From Candidatus Odinarchaeota archaeon (GTDB lineage: Archaea; Asgardarchaeota; Odinarchaeia; Odinarchaeales; Odinarchaeaceae): a DNA stretch of 54,811 nt. Shown in pieces: positions 38,516 through 48,616 of the stretch. Where the stretch lies: assembly GCA_038826135.1 (NCBI GenBank), contig JAWBON010000001.1, positions 1-54,811 of the forward strand, read 5' to 3'. Position 1 is the first letter of the stretch, and the number at the start of each line of letters is the position of its first letter. Under the pieces are notes generated by a model. The model was not told where the DNA came from, searched no databases, and worked only from the letters and a program-made list of their open reading frames with translations. The position numbers and the translations under genes are program-made.

Positions 38516-39223
38516 TTAACTTTTTCGTAGTCTTTTATGTCTAATCGTTTTCTTAACTTTTTTTACGGGTTCTCTATCTGTTTTATCAACGGTTTTCGAG
38601 GCTGCTAAAAACCAGTATGCTTGGAATATTAAAGCTGCGATCATAATTATAATTCCGGCTGTTAAATAAATCATATATCCCGCCATAGAGGCTAGCATAA
38701 GAATAGCGGTTATCGTTAAAACTTGTTTAAGTTGAAGATAACCTGTGAACTCTTTTACAGCTATGTAAAGCATTAGAATCCATACAACCAGATATATGAT
38801 TAGAGGTGCTAGTGTAAAAGATGAAAGAATGTTAATCAAGTACACTATGTTTGAAACTGTTTCAGACTCGCCTATAATATTGGACGCTAAAACCACCAGT
38901 AGGCTAGCTCTGCTTATTTGGAGGGCTGTGTTTATGAGAACATACCATAAATACCCTTTCAGGAAGATTCGGGTTTTACCTGTGTTTTTGAAAATATACT
39001 CGTTCGGTGTTAGAATCTTATAGCTGAAATATATTATAAAAAGCAGTAGCGCCTCTGTCAAAATGATTATTAATAAAATAATGGTTGTAAGAAGTGTGCT
39101 GGGAGGGTAAAATAATATTACAAGATGTGTAATATATATTAAGGCAACTACTAGACTGGAGAAAAATCCTCTAAGCGTTTTTTTAACGTTTTCACTAAGC
39201 TCGTCTTTTAGCAAAATCCCCAC
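38516..39223 (-). CDS. membrane protein (about 6 TM) with basic C-terminal tail
   Basis: 235-aa hydrophobic ORF ending KKVKKTIRHKRLRKS. No family recognised. Confidence 0.5.
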   Translation of the reverse strand: MGILLKDELSENVKKTLRGFFSSLVVALIYITHLVILFYPPSTLLTTIILLIIILTEALLLFIIYFSYKILTPNEYIFKNTGKTRIFLKGYLWYVLINTALQISRASLLVVLASNIIGESETVSNIVYLINILSSFTLAPLIIYLVVWILMLYIAVKEFTGYLQLKQVLTITAILMLASMAGYMIYLTAGIIIMIAALIFQAYWFLAASKTVDKTDREPVKKVKKTIRHKRLRKS

Positions 39224-39688: not shown

Positions 39689-40264
39689 ATGGGTGGTAAG
39701 GAACCGTTAATCAGCTTTGAAGCTCTTCTATCAGATATACTTAAAGGTGTGGCTGGTATTCAAAAAATGGTTGAGGAGCTTAACCGGAATTTAATTTCCT
39801 CACAGGAAGCTCAGAAAGAATCTATTATAAGTAGATTAGAACAGATGGAAACTTATTTCCACTCTATGAAGGAGACAACTGAGCTTTTAAACGAGTTGTT
39901 AGCAGAGTTAAGGATTTTGGTACCAACCCTGCATATAAATAAATTAATTGAAGAGGTTAAATCCGCTGGGTTCCAGGTTAAAAAAGAAGCTTCCACGGTG
40001 TCGGAGAAGTTTAGAGACTTCAGAGATGAGGCGGCTTATAATATTCAAACTAGAACCTCTCAGAAACAGGTTACAGCACCCGTTGAGGCTGAACCACCAT
40101 TCTCCCCGACTCCAGCTTTGGAACCAGGCGTGCAGGAGGCGGCTTCTGAGAAGAAGGAGCCTGATGTGGTTTACAGCTCCAAGGTCCCATCCTATGTGAA
40201 GGAGAAGAAGAAGCCTAAATCAATATGGGCGGGGATTAGAGATGAAGAGGAGCAGGTTCAATGA
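39689..40264 (+). CDS. hypothetical helical protein with Pro/Glu/Lys-rich tail
   Basis: 191 aa. The N-terminal ~100 aa are helical; LHINKLIEEVKSAG resembles FDVNKLEDILQKAQ in the 40698..41096 product. Confidence 0.5.
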   Translation: MGGKEPLISFEALLSDILKGVAGIQKMVEELNRNLISSQEAQKESIISRLEQMETYFHSMKETTELLNELLAELRILVPTLHINKLIEEVKSAGFQVKKEASTVSEKFRDFRDEAAYNIQTRTSQKQVTAPVEAEPPFSPTPALEPGVQEAASEKKEPDVVYSSKVPSYVKEKKKPKSIWAGIRDEEEQVQ

Positions 40265-40697: not shown

Positions 40698-41096
40698 CTA
40701 TTTTAATTTGTTAAGAGCTGTTTTAAGCTCGTTAAGTACGTTTGCGATATTTGTTTTCTTAAGCTCTTCACCTAAGGTTTCAGTCACCTTTTGCGCTTTC
40801 TGTAATATATCTTCAAGTTTATTTACATCAAAAATTGTTTTAATACCTGTTATGCTCTCCATCAGATTTCTAATAAGGAAATCTGTTTGCTGTTCGAACC
40901 TGGTCTGCATCTGCGCAGTCTTATCGGCGAGTTTATCTATTGAAAGCTGCATTTCAGCCATGCTTTTCTCGAATACAGGTATCAAACTGTTTTTAATATT
41001 GTTAGCAGCCTCTCCGAGTTTTATGTTAACTTCTTCAAGCTTGCTAATCAAAGAGTTAAATTTACTCCATATCGCTTGATCTTCACTGTCAACCAT
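40698..41096 (-). CDS. hypothetical helical (coiled-coil-like) protein
   Basis: 132-aa ORF with an ATG start. Heptad-like composition. No family recognised. Confidence 0.55.
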   Translation of the reverse strand: MVDSEDQAIWSKFNSLISKLEEVNIKLGEAANNIKNSLIPVFEKSMAEMQLSIDKLADKTAQMQTRFEQQTDFLIRNLMESITGIKTIFDVNKLEDILQKAQKVTETLGEELKKTNIANVLNELKTALNKLK

Positions 41097-41262: not shown

Positions 41263-41499
41263 TTATTTAAGTCTTTTTATAAGATACACCCAGTAGCCTT
41301 CTTTCTCCTCGACTTTAAGTAACTGGTTTCCTGTTCTCTCAGCCCATCTTGGAAAATCCTCTTTCGAACCCGGATCTGTTGACCATACTTCTAGGGTTTC
41401 ACCTACATTTATGCTCTGTATCTCTTTTTTAGTTTTTAAAATTGGTAGTGGGCATTGATCACCGCGGCAGTCTAGTTTTTTAACAGGTTTTTCACTCAT
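41263..41499 (-). CDS. tusA: TusA/SirA-family sulfur carrier
   Basis: 78 aa. LDCRGDQCPLPILKTKKEI contains the conserved Cys-Pro persulfide motif. Confidence 0.85.
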   Translation of the reverse strand: MSEKPVKKLDCRGDQCPLPILKTKKEIQSINVGETLEVWSTDPGSKEDFPRWAERTGNQLLKVEEKEGYWVYLIKRLK

Positions 41500-41538
41500 T
41501 GGAATTCATCTCCAAATAATTGTTATGTCACACCACGT

Positions 41539-41994
41539 TTATATGAATAATGTGATATCCGCGTCAGCTGCCATGTCTATGAACGCTGCTGCTCCTAGAA
41601 CTTTTTCAACCTCTGGAATAAGATCTTCTTTTTTAAGCCCCATAAGCTCCATTGTAGCTGAGCACGCGTATATGTGCGTGTTTCCTAACTCGACTGTTTG
41701 CTTAACAAGGTCTTTCAGATCAGGGAATCCGGCTTTCTTCATTTTACTCTTCATCATACCTGTACCTATACGCATGACTCCTGGTAGTTTAGCTGACTCT
41801 AATCCGCCTTTTTTAAGCAGATTTAGCCCCCAGAAAGTGAAGAATAAGTGTGTTTCAATATCTGATGCGCCGGCTGCTGCTGCTAATATGAATGGTGGAT
41901 AAGCTTTATCTAATGTACCGCTGTGGACGATTATACACATTTTCTTGTTTTTTTCAGTTTTATTCATCTTGGTTTTCCCGCTCACGTTTACCAC
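41539..41994 (-). CDS. DsrE2/DsrE3-like (COG2210-type) sulfur-relay protein
   Basis: 151 aa. Has CIIVHSGTLDKAYPPFILAAAAGA, FFTFWGL and the conserved Cys in IYACSATMELMG. The real start is probably an internal ATG (MNKTEK... or MCIIV...). Confidence 0.7.
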   Translation of the reverse strand: MVNVSGKTKMNKTEKNKKMCIIVHSGTLDKAYPPFILAAAAGASDIETHLFFTFWGLNLLKKGGLESAKLPGVMRIGTGMMKSKMKKAGFPDLKDLVKQTVELGNTHIYACSATMELMGLKKEDLIPEVEKVLGAAAFIDMAADADITLFI

Positions 41995-42109
41995 CTTTTA
42001 AAATATTATTTTAATTTACATATTTATTCGTAAAGTTTTTAAATATTTCTGCTATAATTTAAATAATTTTAAAATAATAGGTTCTTAACCGAAAAATTTT
42101 TAACGGTGT

Positions 42110-42478
42110 ATGAAAATGGCGAAAATAGGTTTTCTTTTAATGACCGCCCCGTACACTCTTCAAAACTCTGACACTCTTCTAAAACTAGTTGAAACATTAT
42201 TAAGCGAAGGCCACACGATAACGGGCATATACCTTTACGTGGATGGTGTTTACAACGCTAACAGAAAGATTGATCCCAAATCCCCTGAGGAGAGAAATAT
42301 CCCCCAACTATTTCAAAAACTAGCCGCTACCGGTGTTCCGGTGAAAGTGTGCCCTGTCTGCGCAAACTACAGAGGCATCGGCGAGGAGGACCTGATAGCT
42401 GGAGCTGAATTTGACGGTTTAGGCGGTTTAGCTGAAATATTCGAGGAATCTGATAAGATAATAACGTTCACTGGATAG
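42110..42478 (+). CDS. dsrE: DsrE/TusD-family sulfurtransferase subunit
   Basis: 122 aa. The order matches E. coli TusD as I remember it: GHTITGIYLYVDGVYNAN, the active-site-region Cys in VKVCPVCANYRGI, and GLGGLAEI. Confidence 0.85.
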   Translation: MKMAKIGFLLMTAPYTLQNSDTLLKLVETLLSEGHTITGIYLYVDGVYNANRKIDPKSPEERNIPQLFQKLAATGVPVKVCPVCANYRGIGEEDLIAGAEFDGLGGLAEIFEESDKIITFTG

Positions 42479-42485
42479 TGGTAAT

Positions 42486-42845
42486 ATGGATTCAGCTATA
42501 ATAGTGTTCAGTAAAAGCCCCTACGGTCATATTAATATTATCGAGGGTGCTAGAGTCGCTCAAGGCCTACTTGTATTAGATAAAAATGTGGCGTGCGTGT
42601 TTACAGATGATGGTGTGATAAGCTTACTAAAAAACCAGGAACCATCAGCGATAGGTGTGAACCCTGTTAAAATAGTGTTAACGTACTTGGTGAACTTGGG
42701 GGTTGAATTCTACGCGCTGAAACACTCACTAGATGAAAGAGGATTAAGTAAATCAATGTTAGAGGACCAGTATAATGTTAAAATAATAAATTTAGATGAA
42801 TTCACAGTTATCCAGGATAAATTTGATACCGTGATATTCTTTTAG
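42486..42845 (+). CDS. dsrF: DsrF/TusC-family subunit
   Basis: 119 aa. Has IIVFSKSPYGHINIIEGARVA and VFTDDGV. It is second in a DsrE-F-H-sized gene triplet. Confidence 0.75.
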   Translation: MDSAIIVFSKSPYGHINIIEGARVAQGLLVLDKNVACVFTDDGVISLLKNQEPSAIGVNPVKIVLTYLVNLGVEFYALKHSLDERGLSKSMLEDQYNVKIINLDEFTVIQDKFDTVIFF

Positions 42846-42856
42846 GAGAGACCGTT

Positions 42857-43183
42857 ATGAAGTCAACACTATATCTCTGTAATAAATCCCCTTATAATGT
42901 GAAAGGGTTTGAAACTCTTTTAAAAATGGTGAACGCTCAAGCAAACCGTGGGGTTAAAACCGGGCTAGCGCTTTTACAAGACGCTGTGGCCTGCATCACA
43001 GGGGAAGCTTCTAAAAAACTTAATGAGCTTTCAAAATCAGTGAAAATATATATTTTATTAGAGGATGTTAAGGCTAGGGGATTAGCGGATTTGAATTCAA
43101 TAAGCTCTCCAGTCCTTGTAACATACAAGGAACTGGTGAACATCATAGTGAAAGAGTATGATCGTATTGTAAACTATTTATAA
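42857..43183 (+). CDS. dsrH: DsrH/TusB-family subunit
   Basis: 108 aa. Has LYLCNKSPYN and LLQDAV. It is third in the triplet. Confidence 0.7.
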   Translation: MKSTLYLCNKSPYNVKGFETLLKMVNAQANRGVKTGLALLQDAVACITGEASKKLNELSKSVKIYILLEDVKARGLADLNSISSPVLVTYKELVNIIVKEYDRIVNYL

Positions 43184-43192
43184 AATGAGTAA

Positions 43193-43639
43193 GTGAGAAG
43201 ATTGAAGCTCGATGAAAGAGATCAAAAGATAATAGAGATCTTAAAGAATAATGCTAGAACACCAGTTAAAGAAATAGCTGGGAAACTAGGCTTATCAGTT
43301 TCAACTGTTAGTTTAAGAATTAAAAACCTGGTTAAAAAAAATATTATAAAAGGGTTTAAAACTGTGATAAACCAGGCGCTTATAGAGGATGCCTGTCAGC
43401 TAGTTTTAGAGATCGCTGCGGATAAAGCTGAGAACATTAATGAACTGGGTAAAGCGTTAAGCGCTAAAGAGAATATCTGCCTTGTTTTAAACATCACAGG
43501 GGAGTATGACTTTCTCGTCTTCAGCAAGTGTAAAGATTCGCTTGAAGGAGCCGCCTTCTTAAACGAGCTTAGGAAATTGAAAGGTGTTTCTAAAATCAAA
43601 TCCCACTATGTTCTGCAGAAGTTGAAAGTCGAGTTTTAA
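43193..43639 (+). CDS. Lrp/AsnC-family transcription regulator
   Basis: 148 aa, GTG start. HTH segment is LDERDQKIIEILKNNARTPVKEIAGKLGLSVSTVSLRIKNLVKKNIIKGF, followed by a RAM/ACT-like C-terminal domain. Confidence 0.85.
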   Translation: MRRLKLDERDQKIIEILKNNARTPVKEIAGKLGLSVSTVSLRIKNLVKKNIIKGFKTVINQALIEDACQLVLEIAADKAENINELGKALSAKENICLVLNITGEYDFLVFSKCKDSLEGAAFLNELRKLKGVSKIKSHYVLQKLKVEF

Positions 43640-43696: not shown

Positions 43697-46600
43697 GTGT
43701 TGATGGCGGCTTTAATCGCAGATGTTAAAGCTACTTTTTCGAAAGGTAATGAGAAATGGGTTTGGGAGAAAAAAACAGACGGCTGGGTTTTAGAAGGCAT
43801 ATATCTGGGTGGTAAAAAACTCGGATGGGAGAAAACCCCCGGTAACCTAATCGTCTACGAAAATAATTCAATAGTAAATTATAAACTTATCTTCGATCAA
43901 GTACAGGAAACCCCGGATGGGTTAGTATTCTCTGGTTCAAATGAATTATACGAGGTTAAAAAAATCTGGTTTTTCGGTGAAGATACACCTAAACTTGTAT
44001 TCGCGTTTAAAGCTAAGAAGCGTCTTGAAATAGATCTTTTAGAAGCTCCTGTTCTCATATACGCTCCTAAAAACCTCCTGTATTCCTTCATCGGCGGTTT
44101 AAGATACTCGAAGAACAGTTCATTCGATGTTGTAAACCGAGTATTCAATTTCCCCTATCCTTTTTCAACATATTATAAGGTGAAGATACCTCCCAGAGAG
44201 ATAAACGGCTCCTGGTATAGAAGCTTAATATATTGTAAAATGCCTTTAGCCCTATATAATTCACGCAAATACTATTTTGGATTAATATTTAACCCTGTGG
44301 AGAAAACCAGTTCGGGAAGAGAGCTACTACACTCCATAAGATTTGATGGAGCCGGGTTAAAAACAGAAAACACAGTGTCCCTATCCTACTGCACTCATAT
44401 GGTATATTCGAAGAGAAACATTTGGCTTGGACTGCCTTCTAAACCACGCCGTTTAAAAATCACGCTCAACCCTTTAGAAGAGGTTTACACAACTGTCAAC
44501 TTCATATACGGTCTCGGTAAATGGTATGAGGCTGTGGAAAAATTCTTTAAAGTAAATCCTTTAACGGAACCACACCTGACCGTTGACCCTAAAACCGTGG
44601 CTTCTAAAACTAAAAACGCTTTCTGGAGAGCTTGGGAGAGCAGGCTTAAAACATTTCTGCAATTACCTTTTAAGCGAAGCCCGGGATTCTTACTCGAAAA
44701 CCTTCTCTTCTCTCTCACATCATTCGACGCGGAGCGTCTCTCCAATTTCTACGACTATTATACTTTGACAGGTGACCGCGTATTCAAATACTGGGTTAAC
44801 TGTTTGAGAAGTAATCTTCTAAGCAGGCGTGTAATAGAAGTTAAAAACAACTATAAAATATGGCATAATGGAATAGCTTTTAACGGCGTGACCGGTGAAG
44901 GTTATACTTATCTCTGGACAGGTTACGCCGGTTACCCTGGCGGTCAAGCCACCATAGTCTTCCGCCTATTAGAATACTATTCTAAAAAGCTTCAAACAAG
45001 CGGTCTATCCGACCAGCGGGTTTTAAATAATGCATTAGACGGTTTAGACTGGATTCTCTCAACACAGAAGCGTAACGGCGCCTGGAGGAGTGCTTTAAAA
45101 ATATTTAGAGAATACCCGGCTAGGAGAATCGACTACTCTCTTCAGGAATCGGTTGGTGGAAGCGCTGAATGCATAAGAGCTTTAATATTAGCTTTTAAAC
45201 TGACAAGGGATAGAAAATACAGAGATGCTGCTGTGAACGGTTTAAAATGGCTTAACGGTAAAGGAGAGTCCGTTCTAGGATATAACTATCTACGCGACGC
45301 TGGTGTATACGAAGAGGAGGGGATCTCTGCAATAGTGGCTGCTCAAGCTAATCTAGACGCTTATGAAGCTTTTCAAGACGACATATACTATAAATACTCG
45401 CTGATATGGGGTAAATATCTTTTAACATGGCATTATCTATGGGAGTCTGAAAGGTTAAAGATCAGGTTCGGCTTCGACCCATTATCGTGGTCAATAACAC
45501 CTAGAGTAGCCCCATACGAGACCGCTATGGTCTTATCAGTATACTCTAGATTATACAAGCTCACTGGGGATGATTTCTGGAAGAAAATATTTATTCAAAC
45601 ATACAATAAGCTTTCAGAATTCCAGGAGTCTGACGGCGGCTTAAGTGAAACATACTTTTTCAACTATCTAAAAGGATTAGCGGAAATCCCTGTTCAACAA
45701 ACATTCGCCGCTAACGAATTACTAAAAGCGTCAATACAGTACATGAACCTTGACAGTGTTATAAAATTTAATGTTGAAGGGGATAAGATAATAATAATTG
45801 AGAGAAACAATCTTCTTAAAGAAATAATTCGAACAGGTAACATTCTCCAGGTAAAATTATCAAACAACTCTGATCACATAAGTCAACCGTTTAAACTCGT
45901 ATCCAACATCCTAGATAAGAGCACAGTGTTCATCGCAGATAAAGAGGTCGCTTCCAGAAGAGGGTGTGAAGTCTACGGGCTTATGGTTAACGCTAAATCC
46001 GATACTCAGATCACTATTAAAATGGAACCCTCTAAATCACCGTCACTAACCATGTATGGTGTAGAAGATTATTCAGCCGCTTATGATAGTAAGACTGGTT
46101 TATTAAAATTGGAATACACTGGTGGACAACCGCGATTAAATCTTATAAAAACCAGCCCGGGAAAAATATTTTTAACACTTGACCGTGATAAAGCAACTCT
46201 TATAGAGCTCCCCGGTGAAAAATTGAAAACTGTTAAAGTAAATCTCCCGCCAGGGCATCACACAGCTGAATTAAGTTTTTCAGATAAAACTGAGCTGAGA
46301 GACTGGGCTGATACCGATTCAAGTATTAGAATACCTTTGTTAATATACCCTAAATTAATATCGAATAAAAGTGAAAGCCTGGTAAGGCTTAAAGCTGATA
46401 AAATTATACAGAGTGCTCCATTCCAGATTAAAAAATCGCTTATAAAATTTCTAAGAGGGAAAGAAGAGATCCCGTTCTATATTCCAGGTAAATCAGAAAT
46501 ACTTGAAAGCCAGGATGAGATTATATTAAAACTTAGATTAGATAAACCCGCTGTAAAAATTCACATGTATTACGGGTCTCAGAGCAGGTTTAAGCCTGAA

Positions 46601-48616
46601 TCAGATTTGAAAGCTAACCTTGAAAAAGGCTGGCTTAACGTATTTGTAAAAGACGGTGCCAGGTGGATTAATCAGTTTACTATAAACAGGTTTGAAAAAC
46701 CTGAGATAGTATTCAACAGCGACTCATCTCATAGTGTAAGCTTAAAACTATCCTTCTGGGACGCTTACTCTAAAACCTCTAGGTTTTTAACCGGTATTCG
46801 CAAGGCTTTAAGAAAATACAGTTTAAGGCTTCTACTAGGTTTAGAAAACATAAGGGATCTATTATACGGCGTAGCTGATAGAAAAATTTCTGATACATTA
46901 CGTGTTCAGAGCCTTGAAAAATTCAAGGTGAATAAATACTCTCTTCAAGCGGATTGCAACCCTGCTTTAAACTGTCTAATAGCGGATTACCGGTTTGAAA
47001 CAGATCTCCACAGGGTTATAGCGAAAATATACGTTTTAAAAAATAATAATAGCTTATATTTGGTTTTTAACCCCTTGAAAATCCGTGTTATGCAGGAGGA
47101 TCTTAAAAGAACCTGGCAGTCTCTCACACCGTTGATAACAGGCGACATTAAAGATTTCAAAAGCATCTCAACCAACGAGCTGCAGTTAACATTGAATAAC
47201 GGTAAATCCATTAAATGGATGATATTTGACAGTGATAGGACAACAGGCACAGCTATGGGGGCTATTAGATCAAATGTAAACAGTGTAGGCGTGGATGTCT
47301 CTCTTAAAACAAACTGGGTTCACGCCGGTGAATACTATCAGTATAGTTCTCTTATAGTGGAGGATGGTAAACAAGCAGTGGAGGGTGTGAATCATCTGGA
47401 GTATTTATGTAATTTTTCATCAACAGATTATATTGCAGGAGCCGTGCAAACGCGTAAACCAGGGTTAGCAGCTGAATTAACAACACCTCAGACGATGACT
47501 GTTAAACCGTTAAAGATTGCTTTAATATATCCTGGAGCCGCTCACGGAATATACCATTATGTGCGTCATCTTAGAAATATGTTGAAGAAACAGGGTTTAA
47601 TAGTGAAAGGATTCTATTTCCCGGAGGAGAAGGTTACCAAGCCTATGATGAGTGATGATAAACCTTTAACAGTTAAATTGAAGATAGGTGAATTCTACTT
47701 TGTTTTACCTGATAAAAAAGCATCTAACACGATTCTTGAAAAAGAATATAAGAAAGACCCGTTTGATATAATTCACCTTCACTGGCCTACCACAACCTGG
47801 GATAGTTATGTTTTCGAATTCGCGGAGAAGTATAGGCTTCCTTTATGCGTTAACCTGCACTACGCTCTATCACTTAGAGATGACGCTTACGGTCTTCTAT
47901 CCCGGTTAATGTATAATATTAGTAAGCGCTACCTCAGGAAAAGTGATAGAATAGTTGTCACATCTAAAGCTCAGGAAAACTTTGTTAAAAGTTTAGGTTA
48001 CCCTTCAGTCACCCATATACCCACAGGGGTTGACGTCAACTATTTTAAACCCTGTGTGAAATTACCTAGTAAAATTAAAACTATACTATATGTCGGGCGA
48101 ATCTCACCTGAGAAAAACGTTGAAGCCTTGATTAAAGCCTTTAAAAAATGTGATTTTAAAGGTGTACGCCTAGTTCTTGTTGGGAAGGGGCCTTTATTGA
48201 AACGGTTGAGAAGCAAGTATATTGGCGGCGATGTTTTATTCACCGGATATATCTCCGAAGCGGAGAAGCTTAAGTACTTGCAGAATTCAGATCTATTTGT
48301 AACAGCGACTAAAATGGAGTTGATGAGTATAGCTGTTCTTGAAGCTATGGCTGCGGGTCTACCTGTAGTAACCTCCAGGCTTGAAGCGTTCGAAGAATTC
48401 GTCACCAGAGATGTGGGGAGAATGATAGAGTTAAACAAGGATTTTGAAGATAATCTAGCCGCTACTATGAAAGAGTTAATTGGCAACGATCGTTTAAGGG
48501 CTGCTATGGGTAAAGCTGCTCGGGAGAAAGCTGTCAGACTATGCTCATGGGATATTATAGGCGCCAAGTTTAAGAAACTGTACGAAAGTATGGTTCAACC
48601 CCATGTTAATCGTTAA
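43697..48616 (+). CDS. giant multidomain protein: unassigned beta-rich regions plus an (alpha/alpha)6-like helical-repeat region, with a C-terminal GT4-family glycosyltransferase
   Basis: 1639-aa uninterrupted ORF. The C-terminal ~370 aa have KIALIYPGAAHG, GRISPEKN, and the EX7E motif ELMSIAVLEAMAAGLPVV. Residues ~330-690 have W/Y/G-rich helix-pair repeats (STQKRNGAWRS, GGSAECIRALILAFKLTRDRKYRDAA). No signal peptide or TM is visible. Confidence 0.8.
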   Translation: MLMAALIADVKATFSKGNEKWVWEKKTDGWVLEGIYLGGKKLGWEKTPGNLIVYENNSIVNYKLIFDQVQETPDGLVFSGSNELYEVKKIWFFGEDTPKLVFAFKAKKRLEIDLLEAPVLIYAPKNLLYSFIGGLRYSKNSSFDVVNRVFNFPYPFSTYYKVKIPPREINGSWYRSLIYCKMPLALYNSRKYYFGLIFNPVEKTSSGRELLHSIRFDGAGLKTENTVSLSYCTHMVYSKRNIWLGLPSKPRRLKITLNPLEEVYTTVNFIYGLGKWYEAVEKFFKVNPLTEPHLTVDPKTVASKTKNAFWRAWESRLKTFLQLPFKRSPGFLLENLLFSLTSFDAERLSNFYDYYTLTGDRVFKYWVNCLRSNLLSRRVIEVKNNYKIWHNGIAFNGVTGEGYTYLWTGYAGYPGGQATIVFRLLEYYSKKLQTSGLSDQRVLNNALDGLDWILSTQKRNGAWRSALKIFREYPARRIDYSLQESVGGSAECIRALILAFKLTRDRKYRDAAVNGLKWLNGKGESVLGYNYLRDAGVYEEEGISAIVAAQANLDAYEAFQDDIYYKYSLIWGKYLLTWHYLWESERLKIRFGFDPLSWSITPRVAPYETAMVLSVYSRLYKLTGDDFWKKIFIQTYNKLSEFQESDGGLSETYFFNYLKGLAEIPVQQTFAANELLKASIQYMNLDSVIKFNVEGDKIIIIERNNLLKEIIRTGNILQVKLSNNSDHISQPFKLVSNILDKSTVFIADKEVASRRGCEVYGLMVNAKSDTQITIKMEPSKSPSLTMYGVEDYSAAYDSKTGLLKLEYTGGQPRLNLIKTSPGKIFLTLDRDKATLIELPGEKLKTVKVNLPPGHHTAELSFSDKTELRDWADTDSSIRIPLLIYPKLISNKSESLVRLKADKIIQSAPFQIKKSLIKFLRGKEEIPFYIPGKSEILESQDEIILKLRLDKPAVKIHMYYGSQSRFKPESDLKANLEKGWLNVFVKDGARWINQFTINRFEKPEIVFNSDSSHSVSLKLSFWDAYSKTSRFLTGIRKALRKYSLRLLLGLENIRDLLYGVADRKISDTLRVQSLEKFKVNKYSLQADCNPALNCLIADYRFETDLHRVIAKIYVLKNNNSLYLVFNPLKIRVMQEDLKRTWQSLTPLITGDIKDFKSISTNELQLTLNNGKSIKWMIFDSDRTTGTAMGAIRSNVNSVGVDVSLKTNWVHAGEYYQYSSLIVEDGKQAVEGVNHLEYLCNFSSTDYIAGAVQTRKPGLAAELTTPQTMTVKPLKIALIYPGAAHGIYHYVRHLRNMLKKQGLIVKGFYFPEEKVTKPMMSDDKPLTVKLKIGEFYFVLPDKKASNTILEKEYKKDPFDIIHLHWPTTTWDSYVFEFAEKYRLPLCVNLHYALSLRDDAYGLLSRLMYNISKRYLRKSDRIVVTSKAQENFVKSLGYPSVTHIPTGVDVNYFKPCVKLPSKIKTILYVGRISPEKNVEALIKAFKKCDFKGVRLVLVGKGPLLKRLRSKYIGGDVLFTGYISEAEKLKYLQNSDLFVTATKMELMSIAVLEAMAAGLPVVTSRLEAFEEFVTRDVGRMIELNKDFEDNLAATMKELIGNDRLRAAMGKAAREKAVRLCSWDIIGAKFKKLYESMVQPHVNR

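Follow-up and report, generated by a model that had tools for sequence, protein, structure and literature searches.

We analysed a 54,811-nucleotide stretch of DNA from Candidatus Odinarchaeota archaeon (contig JAWBON010000001.1, positions 1 to 54,811; hereafter the window), and found that the giant gene at 43697..48616 on the + strand encodes a real, conserved protein of 1,637-1,639 residues of Odinarchaeia. In this protein a large N-terminal region, built of β-sandwich domains and an (α/α)6 toroid, is joined to a C-terminal glycosyltransferase family 4 (GT4) domain, and the core of the N-terminal region is found in other archaea as a separate gene. We propose, at a probability of about one half, that the protein has two carbohydrate-directed enzyme activities and acts on a lipid-linked substrate.

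A conserved giant protein of Odinarchaeia

The open reading frame (ORF) consists of 1639 codons and a stop, without internal stop codons. A preliminary description made from the sequence alone had called it uninterrupted and the largest in the window, which is the case, the next largest encoding 684 amino acids (aa), and every peptide motif it quoted was found in the translation. Because the alignments with orthologues begin at codon 3, the ATG at 43703 is probably the true start, giving 1637 aa. A/T-rich TATA-like elements are present in the 57-63 bp upstream, and from these we infer that the giant gene may have its own promoter.

A homology search using residues 1-1270 recovered seven full-length, co-linear orthologues of 1572-1649 aa (42-69% identity), all from Odinarchaeia or 'Promethearchaeota' metagenome-assembled genomes (MAGs). 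Their assemblies are independent, and one of them is the closed Ca. Odinarchaeum yellowstonii LCB_4 chromosome (CP091871.1). In addition, a partial protein with 98% identity, QW739_05830, is found in an NCBI 'Candidatus Odinarchaeota archaeon' MAG. Public annotation of the orthologues reads only 'glycosyltransferase family 4 protein'. The preliminary description had named an assembly or frameshift artefact joining separate genes as an alternative, and the unusual length of the ORF, together with the occurrence of the core and GT4 as separate genes in other phyla, would fit it. However, a chimeric assembly or frameshift fusion is ruled out by the seven full-length orthologues, the closed chromosome among them. 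Composition is also even along the whole gene (GC content 0.36-0.42), and the domain order is unlike that of the unfused gene clusters described below, so that read-through cannot produce the fusion. We regard an artefact as vanishingly improbable.

The proposed C-terminal GT4 domain was borne out, both Pfam halves scoring above their gathering cut-offs: PF13439 (Glyco_transf_4) at aa 1287-1448 with 47.2 bits (cut-off 28.5, E=3.3e-12) and PF00534 (Glycos_transf_1) at aa 1456-1610 with 101.9 bits (cut-off 26.4, E=3.6e-29). The GRISPEK (VGRISPEKN; GRxSPEK) and EX7E (ELMSIAVLE) motifs were invariant in 8/8 fused proteins, that is, the window protein and its seven orthologues. Judged by these defining sequence features, the domain is a GT4 (GT-B) member. 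When the full protein was compared with PDB sequences by phmmer, GT4 structures were the only matches, and the best match of the domain was PimA (E=7e-22). Its nearest characterised relatives are thus two lipid-headgroup glycosyltransferases, PimA (PDB 2gej/4n9w) and GpgS, which have the GT-B fold and the two GT4 Pfam halves in common with it, as well as the motifs GRxxxxK and EX7E. Unlike them, the Odinarchaeia domain bears ~1285 additional N-terminal residues, and its score is far under the equivalog cut-off (88.5 bits versus 480 for the best NCBIfam match, the GlcNAc-phosphatidylglycerol synthase GpgS, NF053787).

The first 1270 residues had been described as unassigned. This is correct in that Pfam and NCBIfam searches of the full protein left aa 1-1270 unmatched save for a sub-threshold Pec_lyase match, but the region is not a single block; it consists of an ~820-aa family and additions specific to Odinarchaeia. 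AlphaFold2 (AF2) models were made of aa 1-730 and aa 700-1290, with predicted local distance difference test (pLDDT) scores of 89.3 and 86.4 and predicted template-modelling (pTM) scores of 0.91 and 0.83, respectively. The resulting domain layout, which we hold to be correct with little doubt, is shown in Table 1. Residues 1-330 and 700-1270, noted earlier as β-rich and without a nameable motif, were modelled as β-sandwich domains that belong to no named family. For residues ~330-690 a six-hairpin toroid had been suggested, and the suggestion agrees with the 12 helices that AF2 places between residues 298 and 683, with the six-hairpin enzymes retrieved by Foldseek, and with weak Pfam matches of the six-hairpin clan in 16 homologues. 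In the second model the helical pair spans 1026-1057 and the third β-sandwich spans 1076-1225, and the linker to GT4 is disordered (pLDDT <50 from aa 1264). Comparison of the Odinarchaeia-specific β-domains by hhalign gave no sign of internal duplication (all probabilities <1%). Neither a transmembrane helix nor a signal peptide was found in the giant protein or any homologue, and the maximum KD19, located within the EX7E helix of the GT4 domain, is only 1.67, in accordance with the cytoplasmic location predicted earlier.

Among the eight fused proteins, conservation is highest in the toroid, with 76% identity to the query and 157/353 invariant residues. Identity is 70-72% in the GT4 domain, versus 42-47% in the N-extension and the insert. 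Such a bimodal pattern would suit a pair of catalytic modules with spacers between them. Conserved motifs of the toroid include GYAGYPGGQA, STQ..G.W, GG.AEC, LRD.G..E.E, S.SITPR..PYE, GGLSE and QTFA..E. About 60 core residues, including 8 acidic and 7 basic ones, are invariant from Thermoplasmatota to Odinarchaeia. The polar residues that are invariant family-wide (R476, E491, R533, D534, E539, E541, R603, E608, E651, Q668 and E674) are confined to a single face of the barrel, where they occupy long loops or the N-terminal ends of alternating helices, whereas the short loops on the opposite face carry no invariant polar residue. Because the invariant polar residues gather on one barrel face of the model, we infer that this face may be a real active or binding funnel. 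The D..L.TNWTHGG motif of the C-terminal β-sandwich (D1200, N1206, W1207, G1211) is likewise invariant, and this domain possibly completes the funnel.

Table 1. Domains of the giant protein, with coordinates in the window
Domain	Residues (aa)	Coordinates	Strand	Basis and remarks
N-terminal β-sandwich	1-125	43697..44071	+	AF2; weakly conserved, 47%
Second β-sandwich	126-275	44072..44521	+	AF2; conserved core, 53/150 invariant in fused orthologues
Linker helix and 12-helix (α/α)6 toroid	276-688	44522..45760	+	AF2, Foldseek, alignments
Odinarchaeia-specific insert, ~2 β-sandwich domains	689-1009	45761..46723	+	AF2, alignments; ~300 aa, weakly conserved, 42%
Helical pair and C-terminal β-sandwich of the conserved core	1010-1225	46724..47371	+	AF2, alignments
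Tail and flexible linker to GT4	1226-1285	47372..47551	+	AF2
GT4 (GT-B) glycosyltransferase	1286-1634	47552..48598	+	Pfam, NCBIfam, PDB sequence searches

Standalone homologues and fold relatives of the core

BLASTP showed that standalone proteins of ~820 aa (P0009-P0024) match residues ~105-700 and ~1010-1225 of the giant protein. The N-extension (residues ~2-57) and the insert (689-1009) are missing from these homologues, and the Odinarchaeia protein thus equals the core plus these two segments, the tail (1226-1270) and GT4. When 1.84 billion representative proteins were searched exhaustively with a profile, only 149 passed a threshold of E<=1e-3 and 48 one of E<=1e-30, and just two clusters have the fused architecture. 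Most standalone loci belong to Thermoplasmatota, the others to Aenigmatarchaeota and other DPANN-like archaea and to a few unclassified archaea. The Odinarchaeia core is nearest to the subgroup associated with glycosyltransferase family 2 (GT2), the DPANN-type (37-40% identity). The distant relatives from the exhaustive search were scanned for a bridge to a named family, and only scattered sub-threshold six-hairpin matches were seen. Literature searches found no description of the giant protein or of the standalone family, and a search for a characterised full-length family with the same architecture found none; the module is a rare archaeal six-hairpin family, previously undescribed. One standalone homologue, followed by a downstream flippase-like gene, lies on a 3.4-kb contig from Guaymas binned as 'Spirochaetes bacterium' (L034, QNBI01000357.1), which is probably an archaeal contig placed in the wrong bin and not a case of the family in bacteria.

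Gene neighbourhoods were surveyed at 39 standalone loci, counting genes within the fetched stretches. A glycosyltransferase gene was present in 35 of the 39. A GT4 gene lies directly upstream on the same strand, often <20 bp apart or overlapping, in 29, and a seven-transmembrane LPG_synthase_TM / TIGR00374 flippase-like gene lies directly downstream in 23. A seven-transmembrane PMT/ArnT-like GT-C was found at 25 loci and a MurG/Alg13-14-like GT28 at most, and the DPANN-type subgroup has a small soluble GT2 directly downstream (6 loci). Aligned over its full length, the cluster GT4 scores 184 bits with IagA/BgsA and 143 bits with Dgs, which are glycolipid synthases; neither score reaches the cut-off. 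The downstream partner passes the TIGR00374 flippase-like model, the next match being the GlcN-PG flippase.

The partners are arranged as a five-gene cluster in two loci (L002 and L003) and ~25 further Thermoplasmatota loci (e.g. L002 1804-11622). Its members are a MurG-like GT28, a seven-transmembrane PMT/ArnT-like GT-C, a glycolipid-type GT4, the 820-aa six-hairpin protein and the flippase-like gene, and in L002 and L003 it is near a polyprenyl synthase and mevalonate-pathway genes. A description of this cluster was not found in literature searches. At another locus (L001 13146-18574) an AEP-TOTE primase / AAA_25 gene, small ORFs and a phage-type integrase stand beside a DPANN-type GT2-core-GT2 cluster, which suggests that an integrated mobile element adjoins it.

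When the first AF2 model was compared with the PDB by Foldseek, the matches were carbohydrate-active enzymes composed of a β-sandwich and an (α/α)6 barrel, with an identity of only 9-13%. The top matches came from glycoside hydrolase family 94 (GH94; 8ho8/3qde), cellobiose phosphorylase among them, with E=1e-10 and 10-11% identity and a template-modelling (TM) score of only 0.3-0.35. Further matches were the polysaccharide lyase (PL) BACCELL_00875 (5nok), GH116, GH63, GH15, dextran dextrinase and GH133, and the toroid alone matched GH76 (TMt 0.76) and AGE-type epimerases (TMt 0.68). The second model matched nothing more specific than β-sandwich accessory domains, those of GH2, GH38, GH101 and PL26 enzymes. 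GH94 cellobiose / oligoglucan phosphorylases (3qde, 8ho8) have the same layout of N-terminal β-sandwich, helical linker, (α/α)6 barrel and C-terminal β-sandwich, and at ~820 aa they are similar in size to the standalone homologues. Nevertheless, the GH94 Pfam models (Glyco_transf_36 / GH94 domains) gave no match at E<=1 in the giant protein and 16 homologues, and the GH65 and GH15 models gave none in the same proteins.

Matches to the six-hairpin clan of Pfam in the 16 standalone homologues were weak, the most frequent being LANC_like (13/16) and C5-epim_C (11/16), with GH127, SQHop_cyclase, Pec_lyase and GH88 in addition. PF06662 (D-glucuronyl C5-epimerase C-terminal) reached E=5.5e-6 at best in the standalone homologues and did not match the window protein; in the distant relatives its match spans a single hairpin. 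An hmmsearch of the core profile against the PDB retrieved only LANCL2 and LANCL1 (E=3.7e-5 to 3e-3) and a SQHop_cyclase_C protein, all partially. LANCL1/2 are the sole significant PDB sequence similarity, and it covers 2-3 helical hairpins. A LanC-type enzyme was considered and rejected, because, when aligned by HMM with LANCL1/2, the family has Thr/Ser and Val-Glu where LanC proteins have their zinc ligands (Cys, Cys-His), and the toroid contains no invariant Cys or His. LanC proteins are also without flanking β-sandwich domains, unlike the Odinarchaeia module. Taken on the sequence tests, which fail in each case, the N-terminal module resembles GH94, GH15, GH65, PL and LanC proteins but cannot be filed under any of them.

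Proposed activity and its alternatives

The Arn pathway comprises ArnC, ArnD, ArnE/F and ArnT. In gpgSDF of P. aeruginosa, a synthase, a deacetylase and a flippase are encoded in that order (PMC12713373). The order of the standalone cluster, a glycosyltransferase, a soluble cytoplasmic protein and a flippase-like protein with a GT-C, mirrors the synthase, headgroup-editing enzyme, and flippase with GT-C of these two systems, the difference being that a six-hairpin protein takes the middle place of the deacetylase or deformylase. The partners, namely the PimA/GpgS/BgsA-type GT4s, the MurG-like GT28, the flippase-like protein and the GT-C, would all work at the membrane, on acceptors that are lipids or are linked to lipids. 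Because of these lipid-acting partners and the mirrored gene order, we propose a two-step activity. The giant protein would be a soluble, cytoplasmic, bifunctional carbohydrate-active enzyme, whose GT4 domain, predicted from the sequence to be a retaining GT-B enzyme using a nucleotide sugar, transfers a sugar, on the inner (cytoplasmic) side of the membrane, to a membrane lipid or a lipid-linked acceptor. The toroid module, β-sandwich / (α/α)6-toroid / β-sandwich, to which GT4 would be tethered by the flexible linker, may then process the lipid-linked sugar made by GT4 before export. Trimming or phosphorolysis, transglycosylation and epimerisation are candidate chemistries. The logic would be either to synthesise, edit and flip, as in gpgSDF and Arn, or to control length, as in cyclic-glucan synthase, an example of a glycosyltransferase and (α/α)6 processing modules operating within a single polypeptide (PMC10901819). 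Separate adjacent genes would hold the two activities in Thermoplasmatota and DPANN, followed by the flippase-like gene and often accompanied by the PMT/ArnT-like GT-C, which would use lipid-linked donors outside the cell; in Odinarchaeia both would be fused and padded with additional β-sandwich domains.

Several results weigh against this proposal. Identity between the Odinarchaeia GT4 domain and the cluster GT4s is only 20-27%, and the fusion has its parts the other way round, with the core ahead of GT4 and not behind it as in the clusters. The low identity and the reversed order indicate that the fusion is not a simple read-through of a cluster and that a different GT4 was recruited, so that the two modules became physically coupled independently in the fused protein. 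The fused gene is adjoined by no flippase-like, PMT-like or GT28-like gene in the window or at the orthologue loci, and the order GT4, core, flippase-like gene is confined to the standalone Thermoplasmatota clusters; compared with gpgSDF, the window gene has neither a GpgS equivalog score nor a flippase-like gene in the window. The NCBIfam GT4 matches are all far below equivalog cut-offs. As to the toroid, its closest PDB sequence relatives are LanC-like proteins, not glycosidases, no catalytic residue has been mapped, and identity to any solved enzyme is ~10%.

The same lack of membrane partners near the fused gene would be accounted for if the module were a cytoplasmic enzyme acting on soluble glycans (a phosphorylase, hydrolase or transglycosylase) and controlled how long an oligo- or polysaccharide formed by GT4 becomes, or what shape it takes. 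The product might resemble the cyclic or short glucan of Cgs, or be a compatible solute. GH94 phosphorylases as the best structural matches, with their common layout and size, fit this alternative, and Cgs, the cyclic β-1,2-glucan synthase, offers a precedent in which GT84, a GH144-like cyclase and a GH94-like phosphorylase form one chain (PMC10901819). Like the Odinarchaeia protein, Cgs is a giant cytoplasmic polypeptide joining a glycosyltransferase to (α/α)6-type glycan-processing modules. However, it is bacterial and has six transmembrane helices, a GT84 (GT-A-like) domain and a recognisable GH94 sequence, whereas the Odinarchaeia protein has no transmembrane helices, a GT4 (GT-B) domain and a toroid that matches no GH family model. 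Since a flippase-like membrane protein and a GT-C flank the module at 23-26 of the 39 standalone loci, the adjoining GT4 resembles glycolipid synthases, and the GH94, GH65 and GH15 Pfam models fail to match, we consider a substrate without a lipid link unlikely. 

The toroid might also be non-catalytic, a scaffold or lectin-like platform that recruits the acceptor (a glycan or a lipid headgroup) or presents it to GT4, or serves oligomerisation, leaving a single catalytic activity. The missing catalytic assignment and the lack of a significant match to any enzyme family model would agree with this, as would the frequent role of β-sandwich domains as carbohydrate-binding modules. Yet the 157 invariant toroid residues stand in fused orthologues that are only 42-69% identical overall, the ~60 residues invariant across phyla, charged ones among them, form a pattern seen more often in active sites than on binding surfaces, and the module also persists across phyla as a separate gene; a scaffold is in our judgement distinctly unlikely. 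Chemistry on something other than glycans, either LanC-like thiol addition or isoprenoid binding as in terpene cyclases and prenyltransferases, is suggested by LANCL2, LANCL1 and the SQHop_cyclase_C protein being the sole sequence-level PDB matches, by LANC_like being the most frequent weak Pfam match, and by the many invariant aromatic residues. The matches span only 2-3 hairpins, however, the zinc ligands of LanC are not kept, the abundant invariant Arg, Asp and Glu argue for a polar substrate, and the genomic partners are all glycosyltransferases, which makes this alternative very improbable.

If the two-activity proposal is true, the module is a new six-hairpin enzyme family without a Pfam, NCBIfam or CAZy-type model or a solved relative above ~10% identity, and it points to an undescribed archaeal pathway for a cell-envelope glycolipid or lipoglycan. 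A broader version, which we offer tentatively and do not favour over doubt, is that the module founds a new carbohydrate-active enzyme family editing lipid-linked sugars on the cytoplasmic face of the membrane, the middle step of an as yet undescribed 'glycosylate, edit, flip, transfer' route to a glycolipid or lipoglycan, shared by Thermoplasmatota, DPANN and Odinarchaeia, and that the Odinarchaeia protein is a self-contained two-step synthase-editor. The fusion together with the GT4 adjacency in 29/39 loci forms a 'Rosetta-stone' link that makes the function of the module directly testable, and the envelope glycoconjugates of Asgard archaea and Thermoplasmatota are almost uncharacterised. 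Multidomain enzymes combining glycosyltransferase and GH-like parts, and synthesise-edit-flip pathways, are already known, so the proposal is not a conceptual surprise; what is new is the six-hairpin family and its lineage-specific fusion within this familiar logic of multidomain carbohydrate enzymes.

Surroundings of the fused gene

The window is collinear with LCB_4 (L041, CP091871.1 1135212-1156095) for ilvCNB, tusA/dsrE2, dsrEFH, lrp, the giant gene, leuBDC, nikR and znuABC. The giant protein is just 67-69% identical to that of LCB_4, indicating that the window derives from a different species or genus of Odinarchaeia. The preliminary description had pointed to Lrp/AsnC and dsrEFH genes upstream on the same strand. 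Their adjacency was confirmed, but LCB_4, a close relative, is alone in sharing it; in the more distant orthologues (P0006 and P0007, 42% identity) the upstream neighbours differ and dsrEFH/Lrp are absent, which argues that the adjacency is local synteny and not a functional link. Flippase-like, PMT-like, GT28 and GT2 partners were sought throughout the window without any being found, and an Rfam scan of the window gave no matches. Near P0007, a GMPPB-like sugar-1-phosphate nucleotidyltransferase gene (L042 4946-6112, - strand) is a possible supplier of the donor sugar; the remaining orthologue loci do not share it.

The sulfur-relay cluster at 41263-43639 has two genes on the - strand, tusA (78 aa, with a CPxP motif) and a DsrE2-like gene; the dsrE/dsrF/dsrH-like genes and Lrp/AsnC run divergently from them on the + strand. 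LCB_4 shows the same arrangement, and tRNA thiolation and sulfur metabolism are candidate roles for the cluster in an Asgard archaeon. Two small, charged proteins, of 191 aa (39689-40264, + strand) and 132 aa (40698-41096, - strand), are probably coiled-coil; they have no Pfam family and only a weak apolipoprotein-like match. ORFs of comparable size, 188 and 132 aa, also without a Pfam family, are located at the matching positions in LCB_4. The gene at 38516-39223 (- strand) encodes a 235-aa protein without a Pfam match that appears by eye to be hydrophobic with multiple transmembrane segments and a basic C-terminal tail, and LCB_4 has a 231-aa ORF, likewise without a Pfam match and alike in size, at the corresponding position.

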